Assembly (NCBI RefSeq): GCF_053078305.1
Contig: NZ_CP166879.1
Reading direction: 5' to 3' (one strand)
Length of the DNA stretch: 64,000 nt
Part shown: piece after piece, positions 3,001 through 9,000 of the stretch
Layout: each line of letters starts with the position of its first letter
Position numbering within the stretch: the stretch's first letter is position 1
Made by a program: the position numbers

Positions 3001-6000
3001 AATCCTTATAAAAAATATAATGTTCAACTCGTCATATTGCTTATAAAAAATCCTCGTTCCCAGAGAAATAATATTTATTAAAATGGCAGGTCTTCTTTTT
3101 CTGATTACCGAAGACAAAGTGGCAATTACGTATAGTTTCCCGATAAAGACGCGACAGCTACATCCCGCATAAGGCATTTTTCTCTTTATCTTTGTACGGT
3201 ACTTCATGGAACAGAATTTTTGACCTTGTGAATCGTGATGTCTGTTGGGGAGGAGCAATTTGCTCACTGAAGCGTGAGACTCGATTAAGCGCACGAAACA
3301 CAGAAATCAAAAAACCCGGCCACTTTTTTACAAAGTGACCGGGTAAAAATAATTTTTATTTTTTAACTGCCTTGAGACTCATAGAGATGTCTCAAAACTA
3401 AAATTTGGCTCCTCTGACTGGACTCGAACCAGTGACATACGGATTAACAGTCCGCCGTTCTACCGACTGAACTACAGAGGAATCGTGAGAACGAGGCGAA
3501 TATTAGCGATGCCCACCCACAATGTCAAAGCCTGTTTTTTAAATTTGAAATCGTTTGCTGAAATAATCTGCATTTTGTCGTTTATTCCGACACAACTGGC
3601 TTTTTTTCACACTTTTGCGGCTCGGATCGAGGGTATTTCCATAGCCAACGTCCAGTAACCATTCGCCAGTAAAACAGCACGGCCCGCACAGCCCAGTCGG
3701 CAAACATTCCCATCCAGACACCAACCACACCCCAGCCAAGCATGATGCCCAGCACATAACCGACGACAACCCGGCAACCCCACATGCTCAACATAGAAAC
3801 CCACATAGCGTAACGGGCGTCACGAGCCCCCTTAAATCCAGCGGGTAGCACCCATGAGGCGGACCAAATAGGCATAAATAAAGCATTTAGCCAAATCAGA
3901 ATCACAACGACATGTTTAACCTGTGGATCCTGGGTGTAAAACGATGCCATAACCCCGGCAAAGGGAGCCGTTAGCCAGGCGATGGCCGTTAATCCAAGAG
4001 TGGAAAGCCAGAACACATGCCGCAACTGAATCTCTGCTTGCGCTATCTGCCCTACCCCCAACCTTCGGCCTGTAATGATCGTAGAAGCAGAGCCGAGCGC
4101 ACTTCCGGGTAAGTTGATAAGAGCCGCAATTGAAAACGCGATAAAATTTCCGGCAATAACACTGGTCCCCATCCCGGCAACGAACATTTGGGTTAATAAC
4201 CGACCACTGGTAAATAACACTGATTCGACACTCGCGGGAATACCAATCCCCATGACTTCCCAGATAATGCTAAAATTCAGTGGCTTAAAATAGCTCTTTA
4301 ACGAAATCCTTAGCGCAGGATTAAAACCAATCGCCAACACCCACAAAATTGCAACTGCGCCAATATAACGAGAAATGGTTAAACCCAACCCAGCCCCGAC
4401 AAATCCCAGTCCCGGCCAGGAGAAAAGGCCGTAAATCAATATGCCGCTAATAATAATATTAAGAATATTCAGGCTACCGTTAATCAGTAGCGGTATTTTC
4501 GTATTCCCTGCACCACGAAGTGCCCCGCTACCAATTAGAGTGATGGCAGCTGCTGGATAACTGAGTACCGTCAGCTCCAGATAAGTCAACGCCAGTGCTT
4601 TAACTTCTGTCGTGGCATCACCCGCGACGAAATCAATAATTTGCTCGCCAAAATGATGAATAAGCGTTGCCAACAGTACGGCAAACAACGTCATGATCAC
4701 CAATGACTGCCGCGTCGCCACCCTCGCTCGTCGTCGATCCCGCTTACCGAGACTAAATGCCACAACGACAGTAGTACCAAGATCGATAGCAGCAAAAAAA
4801 GCCATAATGACCATATTGAAGCTGTCCGCCAATCCCACGCCGGCCATCGCATCTTTTCCCAGCCAACTGACCAGAAAAGTGCTCAGAACCCCCATCAACA
4901 GGACACAGGCATTCTCCATGAAGATAGGAACAGCAAGCGGGGTTATCTCGCGCCAGAACAACACTTTGTAGCTCTTGCGTTTAGCGTGCCAGCGAGTGCC
5001 GTGAACAACCTGGCGTAAAGCAGAGGAGATATTCAAAGCCGACCTTAATTGCAGAAAGTGAAACCACATTTCAAATAATGAGGGAGAATCAGCAAAGCTG
5101 CAAAGATTTTCGCCAACAAATTGTCTGCAAATGCAACAAACTGTTGATAGAAACGGCAAACAGTTGGGGAATTTAAAAATCGGGTTTGACAAAAGATTTT
5201 TCGCCGTTAAGATGTGCCTCAACAGCGATTCCTCTGTAGTTCAGTCGGTAGAACGGCGGACTGTTAATCCGTATGTCACTGGTTCGAGTCCAGTCAGAGG
5301 AGCCAAATTTCTGAAAAGCCCGCTTTTATAGCGGGCTTTTTGCTATATCTGATAATCAATTTCCTCTTCACTGTTTTCCATCACCTGGCGCTTGATATCC
5401 TCAACTGACAGTCCTGCATTACAAAGTTCCAGAAAGCGCCAGACATAGTTACGCTGAAGTTGTCCTCGCTTGAGTCCCAACCAGACAGTATTAGCATCGA
5501 AAAGATGCCGCGTATCCAGGCGGATTAAATTCTTTTCCTCTTGTTCACCGCTGGATTGTTCGGCAACTAATCCGATCCCAAGCCCAAGAGCAACATAGGT
5601 TTTAATGACATCAGAATCCTGCGCACTTAATACAATATCTGCCAGCAAACCTTTGCGGGCAAATGCGTCATCAATACGTGAGCGCCCCGTAATCCCCTGT
5701 CGGTAAGTGATTAACGGCCACTTCGCTATTGACTCCAGCGTCAATGGTGTAATTTGCGTCAAGGGATGATCGAGTGGAACAAGCAAACTATGGTGCCAAC
5801 GAAACCACGGGAAGGCGACGAGCTGCGGGTCATTACTCAAACGCTCGCTGGCGATACCAATATCAGCTTCACCATTATGCAACAACGTCGCAATTTCCTG
5901 TGGCGTCCCCTGGATTAGCTCGAGCCGAACCTCCGGGAAAAGTTCGCGAAAAGCTTTAATGACCTCTGGCAAGCTATAACGTGCCTGAGTATGCGTCGTT

Positions 6001-9000
6001 GCAATAGTGAGAACGCCAGACGTATCGTTGGTAAACAGGTCTGCAAGCCGACGAACATTACTGGCTTCATTGAGAATACGTTCTGCAATGACCAGTAATG
6101 CTTTGCCCGGTTCAGTCATGCCCAGCAATCGCTTACCTCGTCGAACAAATATTTCGATGCCAAGTTCATCCTCCAGTTCCCGAATATGACGGCTGACGCC
6201 TGACTGTGAGGTAAAAAGCATATTCGCAACCTCTGTCAGGTTGTAATCCTGACGTGCAGCTTCGCGGATTATCTTTAGTTGTTGGAAATTCACGGTAAAC
6301 TCCGGGCAGTTCAGATATCCCGTTATTGTTAAAGTCTAACGCCCGGCATAACAAATAATAAAAACCCGCATCTTATTCCATCCCGATATAACGCTTAGCT
6401 CACCAATTGCCACTGCCTTTTTTCCATCACTGGAGAACTAATCACTGACATTAACAACTCTTTCACTGCCTGTGCCTGTGGCGATAAGTTCGCTCTGGCG
6501 GGTAAATTTAATGACAAAGAGAGACTCATGGAAGGCGTGGTAATGCGTGACATCCACCCATTTACTGCGCCACATAACGAACGCGCGGCCGATTCGGGTA
6601 ATACTGCAACGCCCATGCCGCTGGCAATCGCTGCGGTAAGCGTGGCAATAGACTCAATTTCACCAATGACTTTTGCCGTGAGCCGCCGTAGGGAAAACGC
6701 CTCATCAACACGAAGTCTAACAGCGCTGTAATCACTGGGGAGAAAAAGGTTCATTTGTGCAATAGCATTAACATCAACGCTTTGCCCCGGGCAATCTTGA
6801 GTTCCTACCAGGAAAAGATCTTCTTTCAGCAAAGCCTGACTGGATACCCCAGCCACAGGGGAATGCTCATAAATCACCGCCATATCGAGTTGGTGATTTA
6901 TCAGTTTTTCGTTAAGCACTGCACCGCTATTTTCATGAAGATAGATAACGATCTCCGGGAATTCAGCGCGAACCGCCTGTAATAAGGGCATGGTGATGGA
7001 TGACGCAGCGGTTCCTGGCGCAAAGCCAATCGAGACTTGCCCCGATAATGCCTGACCAACGTTATGCACCGCCAGTTGGGCCTGCTCACACTGACGTAAA
7101 ATGGCCCGCGCATGGGTATAGAGAATTTTTCCGGCGTCAGTTGGCGTAACGCCCCGTTTTGTGCGAATCAAAAGTTGTTGATTTAACTCACCTTCCAGTG
7201 TGGCAACCTGCTGGCTGAGCGCTGGTTGTGCGATATGCAATACTTCAGCAGCCTGGGTCAGGCTACCAATATCTACAATTTTTACGAAGTATTTAAGGCG
7301 TCTGAAGTTCATGTTGCCTCCGGTTTTTAAGAATCGGCCCAAGTGCCGCCATTACTTACAACCAGATTGCAAGATGCTTGCCAGTTTTATTTTGGCGTTG
7401 ATGTACAAGCTAACCAACTGTCAAATAAGAGATTATGATAGATTCGTCATTGGCTCTTTTCACCAGCAGTCGCGTTCCCCTGCCCTATAAAAGGAGGGTA
7501 TGCACCACGATGGTTCATTACCAATAAGATTGAAATCTCATCACTTTGTTGAAATTGGCAGCAAACAAACAAAAAAATGCATTTCACCCTTTGACATCAC
7601 CATGCACTGCCATTAATATGCGCCCCGTTCACACGATTCCTCTGTAGTTCAGTCGGTAGAACGGCGGACTGTTAATCCGTATGTCACTGGTTCGAGTCCA
7701 GTCAGAGGAGCCAAATTCAAAAAAGCCTGCTTTCTAGCAGGCTTTTTGCTTTCTAATTACCAACGCTCTTAAAACATCTGTCTTGAACCAGAACTAATTT
7801 GCACAGGCATTCCCGATCGACGTTGCAACGCAGCATTTGCGCGATTCACATCAACTTCTTGCCCGTTGATAAACGCCCGCAAAGATGGGGTTACCGGCAA
7901 TGGCACTTTTCGGTCAGACTCATATTCTGCACGATTGCGCGACAGCGGCTCATGAACTTCCAGCCAGTTCGAGCCATCTGGTTCAGTGGTGTATTTTACT
8001 GGCTGGTCGATAATTTGCACACGCGTCCCAACAGGAACATTATCAAACAGATATTTGATATCGTCATTGCGCAGACGAATACAGCCCTGACTTACCCGGA
8101 GCCCAATACCAAAATTGGCATTGGTACCGTGGATGGCATACAACCTGCCAATATAAATCGCGTACAGCCCCATGGGATTATCGGGACCCGCAGGAACAAA
8201 TGCGGGCAAACTCTCCCCTCGTTTCGCATATTCGCGCCGAGTGTTCGGCGTTGGCGTCCAGGTTGGAGCTTCTTGTTTACGTTCAACGGTAGTCACCCAG
8301 TTACGCGGGGTTTCTCGCCCGGCCTGACCGATTCCAATAGGAAAGACTTCTACAGTATTACTGTCTGGCGGGTAGTAATAAAGACGCATCTCAGCGACGT
8401 TAACCACAATCCCTTTACGAACAGTGGCGGGCAAAATCAGTTGCTGCGGAATGGTGAGTTGCGAGCCAGACTTCGGCAAAAAAACATCAGCGCCCGGGTT
8501 CGCTTCAAGCATGTTACTTAACCCTTGCCCGTATTGTGCGGCAAAAGTCTCCAGCGGCTGGGTATTGTGATCAGGAACAGTTACAGTAAACGACTGCCCC
8601 ACTAAACGGCTACCCTCTGGAGGTAATGGATAAGTTACCGCCAGGCTAGTATGGCTGGCAAAAAGCAGAGCAAATGAGCAAAGAATATTTACACGACGCA
8701 TCATGTCCCTTTCCTAAGTCGCGAAAGCTATCCGTTAAGTATAGCTTTTATCAGACTTTTCGTTTTTAACTGTTCAAATCAGAAGTCGTATTCCCCGGTA
8801 GAACAATATTACTGGCAGCAAGTTCGCCCATGTTGTTATATATCGCACAGGCAGCTTCGATGATGGGCATCGCCAGAGCTGCGCCACTCCCCTCACCTAA
8901 ACGCATCTCCATATTGAGATAAGGCTCCAGCCCCAAATGCGACAGCGCTATACGCGCCCCTTTTTCTGCCGACAGGTGAGAAGGAATGAGATACGGTTTG

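Follow-up and report, generated by a model that had tools for sequence, protein, structure and literature searches.

Asparagine transfer RNA (tRNA) genes of Escherichia coli are a known hotspot for genomic islands, among them those for colibactin and yersiniabactin. The pks (colibactin) island, the High Pathogenicity Island (HPI) and integrative and conjugative elements integrate at asnT, asnW, asnU or asnV (PMC8209727, PMC8461471, PMC6458436). Insertions of pks at asnW, asnU or asnV were described, as was a 4,309-bp inversion of asnW-asnU-asnV (PMC8209727, PMC8461471). The asnW/asnV inversion was also detected within UTI89 cultures and termed 'possibly dynamic' (PMC6458436). Here, we analysed asnW, asnU and asnV in a stretch of 64,000 nucleotides from contig NZ_CP166879.1 (RefSeq assembly GCF_053078305.1), referred to below as the window. 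All three sites are empty in the window, and the block they delimit has the non-inverted orientation of the majority. A minority of other E. coli genomes show the outcome of recombination between the identical copies, with the intervening genes inverted or deleted. We regard the three as ordinary asn tRNA genes in the majority, island-free state, whose identical copies are both a substrate for homologous recombination and attachment sites for islands, and give this reading a probability of about 0.9.

The K-12 asnT/asnU/asnV/asnW system has the same 76-nt tRNA sequence, gene order, orientation and spacer lengths as the window. There, too, each gene is a unit of its own between a promoter-like and a terminator-like site. 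The window does not represent K-12, however: K-12 strains are ~97.4-98.1% identical to it across the locus, the flanking DNA is ~97.4-98.9% identical, and the CP4-44-type island found after cobU in K-12-like genomes is missing. Such differences distinguish strains and do not make this another kind of locus, and because of the synteny the K-12 gene names apply to the window. With the strains that carry islands at the asn hotspot, the window shares the tRNA genes and the 16-nt attachment core. The pks island of 536 and UTI89 is found between the block and ldtA, whereas the three sites of the window are empty and its block is not inverted.

Recombination between rrn operons, insertion sequences, duplicated tRNA genes and tuf genes has recurrent features. 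Breakpoints fall in perfect repeats, inverted repeats give inversions and direct repeats deletions, reciprocal junctions occur, and events recur. The same was seen in our survey of the asn genes. Unlike rrn operons, which share several kb, the asn repeats measure 84-86 bp, and the moved segments are small (1.7-4.2 kb). Events should therefore be rare and nearly neutral. The tRNA genes, the island hotspot and the large inversion are already known. What we add to the three cited studies is modest: a yeeO-only inversion, clean cbl-nac deletions, the absence of a fixed duplication, and a case of the block inversion next to an island other than pks, all minor extensions. Population frequencies for each junction are a further addition. 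For discovery, the locus matters little. The locus is also a clean natural example of ~85 bp of identity being sufficient for recurrent chromosomal rearrangement.

Identical asn copies and their rearrangements

tRNA genes were called with ARAGORN over the whole window and scored with Rfam RF00005. Three genes and no more were found, all tRNA-Asn with anticodon GTT in a cloverleaf and with the CCA end encoded in the gene. Each scored 72.6 bits (gathering score 29). Alignment and exact string comparison showed 76/76 identical positions. Including 4-6 bp upstream and 4-5 bp downstream of the gene, the perfect-match block extends to 85 bp for asnW/asnU, 86 bp for asnW/asnV and 84 bp for asnU/asnV. 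The window holds three occurrences of a 25-mer taken at the tRNA 3' end, against 0.00 expected from shuffles, so that chance cannot give three identical copies. The 76-nt sequence was byte-identical at every locus examined, including 536, UTI89, SE15, GF66.2 and K-12 DH1, the last with an exact string match at three sites. A fourth identical copy, asnT, lies next to mtfA in other genomes, ~13-17 kb to the left of asnW and outside the window. The first-pass annotation had reported three identical 76-bp tRNA-Asn genes, one of them inverted, bracketing yeeO and cbl-nac; ARAGORN and the alignment gave the same coordinates, strands and identity. Sequence differences between the copies, which it had named as a reason to drop its proposal of recombination, were absent.

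For the survey, artificial junctions were assembled from 700 bp of upstream context (U), the tRNA and 700 bp of downstream context (D), and a matrix was built from the contexts of asnW, asnU and asnV. The search set comprised 5,426 complete E. coli genomes, and a genome was scored as positive when a single place in it matched 80% or more of the query. The parental junctions were present in 4970 (U_W-D_W), 5179 (U_U-D_U) and 4662 (U_V-D_V) genomes, that is, each was kept by 86-95%. The whole 6.3-kb block (window 2400-8700) was colinear in 4859/5426 genomes (89.6%), and cbl-nac was intact in 5387 by the 700-bp-flank query. The recombinant junctions were found as single ungapped BLAST pieces, with the context switching exactly at the tRNA. 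The gene-order comparison among strains that had been proposed as a check thus revealed structural variation at the locus. The commonest rearrangement, which had not been foreseen, was inversion of the whole 4.3-kb block by asnW x asnV exchange (U_V-D_W, 266 genomes); the reciprocal junction U_W-D_V was found in a single genome, SE15. Inversion of yeeO only, by asnW x asnU exchange (U_U-D_W), was found in 34 genomes. Its reciprocal, U_W-D_U, was present in at least 22 of the yeeO-flip strains, the two junctions co-occurring within the same strains. The asnU x asnV junction (U_U-D_V) occurred in 35 genomes. The tandem-duplication junction U_V-D_U, queried with 450-bp flanks, was found in 0/5,426 genomes. 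Flanks of 700 bp were unsuitable here, the parental pieces being only 932 bp apart and merging into one place.

Gene maps of AH65, PSJ-36 and Santai read yeeN, asn(-), yeeO(+), asn(+), cbl, nac, asn(+), ldtA. Together with the 34 genomes and the reciprocal junctions, these maps confirm the earlier suggestion that asnW and asnU could invert yeeO. Because of clonal descent, genome counts overstate the number of events, and haplotypes were therefore compared. Between flipped PSJ-36 and unflipped K-12 DH1, four positions differed in ~7.8 kb, all of them outside the inverted yeeO segment; between PSJ-36 and flipped Santai/AH65, 163 positions did. Being near DH1 yet far from Santai/AH65, PSJ-36 indicates that the yeeO flip arose at least twice. 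In PSJ-36 and Santai, all four asn tRNA sites are empty: yeeJ follows asnT directly, and no integrase is present at the other three. The yeeO flip therefore needs no island integrase.

The direct pair, asnU and asnV, had been proposed to delete or amplify cbl-nac. Deletion was found, amplification was not (0/5,426). The gene map of MEI3O-23 (yeeN, asn(-), yeeO, asn(+), ldtA) is that of a clean cbl-nac deletion with the loss of one tRNA copy. AH20K059 has the U_U-D_V junction and only three tRNA places, and looks like a clean deletion as well. There are thus at least two clean deletions, MEI3O-23 and AH20K059 being the only ones among the 15 of 35 U_U-D_V matches listed. The count of 35 was rejected as a count of deletions, most of the 15 matches listed keeping four tRNA places.

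In 536, the same pks island lies in the same orientation relative to ldtA as in UTI89, with a 16-nt repeat next to ldtA. The order in UTI89 is nac, asnV, integrase, clbS...clbA, 16-nt repeat, ldtA. The island of 536, on the other hand, adjoins a tRNA whose upstream context is that of asnW, and the 4.3-kb block there has the inverted orientation, as in other pks-positive B2 strains with the asnW x asnV inversion. From these two layouts, 'pks at asnW' is 'pks at asnV' plus an asnW x asnV inversion, as Wami et al. had proposed (PMC8461471). In annotation, the labels 'pks at asnW' and 'pks at asnV' then denote one insertion seen with two orientations of the 4.3-kb block, and naming asn genes by their neighbour alone can therefore mislead. 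In JE86-ST05, whose yeeO allele is K-12-like, the inverted block lies beside another, non-pks island, and the integrase differs as well. The block inversion is not a single event.

Other layouts were more complex. SE15 (NC_013654.1 1968513-1983988) was rejected as a simple reciprocal inversion, having a partial yeeO duplicate beside the left tRNA. Its order is yeeN, asn(-), a 922-bp yeeO 3' fragment (pseudogene), nac(+), cbl(+), asn(-), full yeeO(+), asn(+), ldtA. Such an order amounts to block inversion plus partial duplication of yeeO, more than one reciprocal tRNA exchange can explain. In 2016C-3878 (NZ_CP029747.1 ~1535000-1590000), the one genome mapped among the remaining U_U-D_V matches listed, cbl-nac is relocated between integrase, RHS and type VI secretion system (T6SS) islands. 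Two head-to-head integrase islands (RHS toxin, RelE/ParE) split it from yeeO, a T6SS island follows it, and yeeO, asn and ldtA are joined directly. To arrive at this layout, asn copies must have exchanged several times in succession. The U_U-D_V junction was present at 97.6% identity, as in 2016C-3878, in about a dozen genomes. In O157:H7 WS4202 (NZ_CP012802.1 2605621-2619724), asnT is the sole remaining tRNA-Asn gene; a deletion bounded by IS1203 and starting inside yeeJ took asnW, asnU, asnV and everything between them. FHI_NMBU_03 (NZ_CP019455.1) likewise had a single matching place. NZ_CP196293.1, a 5,969-bp plasmid of AH21A060, carries a tRNA-Asn-like sequence at ~2917-3021 that is 96-97% identical over ~104 bp, short flanks included. 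Depending on the query, 9 to 23 plasmid places matched.

Island occupancy of the asn sites

In the window, the tRNA 3' ends are separated from the next gene by 455 bp (asnW-yeeN), 37 bp (asnU-cbl) and 55 bp (asnV-ldtA). At unoccupied loci elsewhere, including K-12, the spacers are equally long or nearly so. The yeeN-asnW spacer, for example, is also 455 bp in the unoccupied GF66.2 locus and ~452-455 bp in K-12 DH1 and MEI3O-23. By open reading frame (ORF) list and annotation, no integrase ORF adjoins any of the three 3' ends in the window. Nor does the window hold a partial repeat of the 16-nt tRNA 3' end (CCAGTCAGAGGAGCCA) outside the three full genes, with two mismatches allowed. A 16-mer search finds island-end repeats, whereas an 18-mer with one mismatch misses them, the repeat being only 16 nt. 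The statement in the first-pass annotation that no tRNA site is occupied here holds on both counts.

Elsewhere, all three genes are used as island integration sites: asnV by pks, asnU by a defence-type island, and asnW with other integrase islands beside it. The integrase lies 160-180 bp from the tRNA in 536, UTI89, N24 and JE86-ST05. Both the pks island (536, UTI89) and a 12-kb island of N24 have the integrase next to the full tRNA at one end and the 16-nt repeat at the other. In ~100 genomes, other P4-like integrases were found beside a tRNA with asnW upstream context. Upper bounds for occupancy, taken from genomes whose downstream context lacks a junction with a full tRNA, are ~156 (D_W), at most 213 (D_U) and 728 (D_V). 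By the last of these bounds, asnV is the busiest site.

N24, a cerebrospinal fluid isolate (NZ_CM165898.1), was considered as an asnT-asnU deletion and rejected, asnU being simply occupied by the ~12-kb island that ends in the 16-nt repeat. This island encodes an integrase, RelE/ParE, an LA2681-family HEPN protein, a 1,354-aa NACHT protein and an AAA ATPase, and looks like an anti-phage defence island.

Mechanism of the rearrangements

Homologous recombination between the 84-86-bp repeats is the best-supported mechanism. Their perfect identity would offer a substrate to the general recombination system, probably in a RecA-dependent manner. Exchange between the inverted pairs (asnW with asnU or asnV) gives inversions, and exchange between the direct pair (asnU with asnV) deletions. 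The last 16 nt of the tRNA serve as the attachment (att) site for islands with P4-like tyrosine integrases (pks, HPI and others). The copies are presumably kept identical by purifying selection on the tRNA plus gene conversion.

Several points weigh against this account. Genome counts are not event counts, many of the genomes being clonally related. By subtraction, ~264 of the 266 asnW x asnV inversions appear beside a pks-type integrase: a pks-type or related integrase adjoins a tRNA with asnW upstream context in 366 genomes, 102 of them in the 80-90% identity band, i.e. with other integrases. Clonal inheritance and integrase involvement would each account for this association. With identical copies, no crossover point can be placed within the repeat, and in integrase-carrying strains the event may have been site-specific, at the 3' 16-nt core. 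Some 'complete' assemblies could mis-orient the 1.7-kb segment between the 85-bp inverted repeats. Finally, the rearrangements are known from other genomes, and none shows the organism of the window itself rearranging.

The inversions could have been made by the P4-like tyrosine integrases of resident islands (pks, HPI, others), with the tRNA 3' ends used as att sites. Almost all cases of the asnW x asnV inversion have an integrase-bearing island adjoining, with 266 genomes for U_V-D_W against one for the island-free U_W-D_V. The 366 genomes with an integrase at this position point in the same direction, and the inverted block of JE86-ST05 also has an integrase island. The inversion has moreover been suggested to accompany pks acquisition (PMC8209727). 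However, clonal descent of one event in B2 lineages would also produce the pks association, and the yeeO-only flips of PSJ-36 and Santai occurred beside four empty asn sites with no adjacent integrase. To our knowledge, such tyrosine integrases need arm sites and normally do not recombine two bacterial att sites. In E. coli, RecA-mediated exchange can use a repeat of 76 bp plus some flanking bases. We consider integrase-made inversions unlikely. That the rearranged layouts are assembly errors across short repeats, with no real structural variation behind them, is hardly credible. A segment between 85-bp inverted repeats can indeed be orientation-ambiguous in short-read graphs, but ordinary reads exceed repeats of this length and normally resolve them. 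One flipped haplotype class (identical junction identity) is common to at least 17 genomes of differing laboratory, host and country, and both reciprocal junctions are present. Independent publications report the difference between 536/CFT073 and UTI89, and read data showed the inversion directly (PMC6458436, PMC8209727, PMC8461471).

A programmed invertible switch, similar to fimS or a shufflon and controlling yeeO, cbl/nac or the integrase of an adjacent island, would explain why the inversion is recurrent and has been called 'possibly dynamic' in UTI89 (PMC6458436). The integrase of an integrated island lies downstream of the tRNA promoter (PMC8209727), and a crossover in the tRNA swaps the asn promoter that faces it. 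Yet no recombinase gene is found in or beside the block, positions 1-9000 of the window holding only shiA', amn, yeeN, yeeO, cbl, nac, ldtA and the tRNAs. Each of the three tRNAs would take its promoter-like site along with the moved segment, as yeeO would its upstream region, and local wiring would therefore be unchanged. The promoter-like sites of asnW and asnV are, in addition, equivalent in sequence and spacing, and retention of each parental junction in 86-95% of genomes also speaks against a switch. We consider it very improbable. Recombination between the repeats might still form a low-frequency toggle with a selected effect, which we think improbable. Such a toggle might lock islands in place, as speculated for pks (PMC8209727, PMC8461471), or alter read-through from the tRNA promoter into the island integrase. 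It might also turn highly expressed tRNA genes around with respect to replication. The yeeO-only flip in island-free strains (34 genomes, at least two origins) would then be one visible state of a general four-copy shuffling system.

Structure of the locus and its surroundings

Outside the identical block the flanks of the three tRNA genes diverge, yet a promoter-like site (TTGACA, 16-17 nt, TAA(T/G)AT) lies upstream of each. In an alignment of the three upstream regions, the TTTGACA and TAAnAT columns are conserved. The terminators of asnU and asnV are homologous, the alignment extending 37 nt beyond the tRNA. The asnU hairpin ends 2 bp from the cbl stop codon and is possibly bidirectional as a terminator. 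Judged from the sequence, the three genes are predicted to be separate one-gene units derived from a duplicated promoter-tRNA-terminator module. Each copy would be transcribed from its own putative sigma-70-type promoter to a hairpin terminator. Feature coordinates are given in Table 1.

Table 1 Features of the asn locus and further RNA elements in the window.
Feature	Position	Strand	Remarks
yeeN	2234..2950	+	Left flanking gene; from ORF list and RefSeq annotation of colinear loci
asnW terminator-like hairpin and T-run	3314..3344	-	~60 nt downstream of asnW; scan
asnW, tRNA-Asn(GTT)	3406..3481	-	Named by context: yeeN on 3' side, yeeO on 5' side
asnW promoter-like site	3500..3528	-	TTGACA, 17 nt, TAATAT; consensus scan, putative function
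yeeO (MATE efflux transporter)	3582..5069	-	Between inverted copies asnW and asnU
asnU promoter-like site	5186..5213	+	TTGACA, 16 nt, TAAGAT; consensus scan, putative function
asnU, tRNA-Asn(GTT)	5230..5305	+	Named by context: yeeO start upstream, cbl stop downstream
asnU terminator-like hairpin, AAAAGCCCGC...GCGGGCTTTTT	5314..5341	+	Directly after asnU; read from sequence, no scan call
cbl (LysR-type regulator)	5343..6293	-	Between direct copies asnU and asnV
nac (nitrogen assimilation control regulator)	6395..7312	-	Between direct copies asnU and asnV
asnV promoter-like site	7591..7619	+	TTGACA, 17 nt, TAATAT; consensus scan, putative function
asnV, tRNA-Asn(GTT)	7638..7713	+	Named by context: nac start upstream, ldtA stop downstream
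asnV terminator-like hairpin	7720..7747	+	Directly after asnV; scan
ldtA	7769..8704	-	Right flanking gene
STnc240 small RNA	19779-19853	-	Rfam
His operon leader	22151-22274	+	Rfam
JUMPstart element	46208-46246	-	Rfam
naRNA4	52811-52881	+	Rfam
algC RNA motif	57270-57319	-	Rfam

Gene names were taken from the RefSeq annotation of colinear genomes, which are 98-99% identical to the window. The order is shiA', amn, yeeN, asnW, yeeO, asnU, cbl, nac, asnV, ldtA, cobT, cobS, cobU, tmaR, yeeA, sbmC ... hisL, hisG. By this gene order, the locus is the conserved E. coli core block yeeN-asnW-yeeO-asnU-cbl-nac-asnV-ldtA. Positions 1-25000 of the window were colinear in 888/5426 genomes. Over 25 kb, the closest complete E. 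coli genome had 98.9-99.0% identity, and none exceeded 99.0%. TUM13936 is 100% identical to the window over 4530-6005 and 99.9% identical over 2706-4181, but the match ends at an island immediately behind asnV. The window resembles a mosaic or a lineage not yet sampled, with a recombination boundary close to the tRNA cluster. In some genomes (e.g. EC2, strain 361), homology to the window breaks at 3133, ~270 bp past the asnW 3' end. This suggests a second, non-tRNA breakpoint or insertion site in the AT-rich yeeN-asnW spacer.

In the window, cobU gives way to tmaR and yeeA within ~400 bp, the interval between cobU and tmaR being 11215-11600. The CP4-44-type island, insertion sequence remnants and pdu/pocR, which lie between cobU and tmaR in many other E. 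coli (compare GF66.2 and N24), are absent there. The five Rfam elements listed at the end of Table 1 are as expected in the his, O-antigen and colanic-acid region of E. coli.

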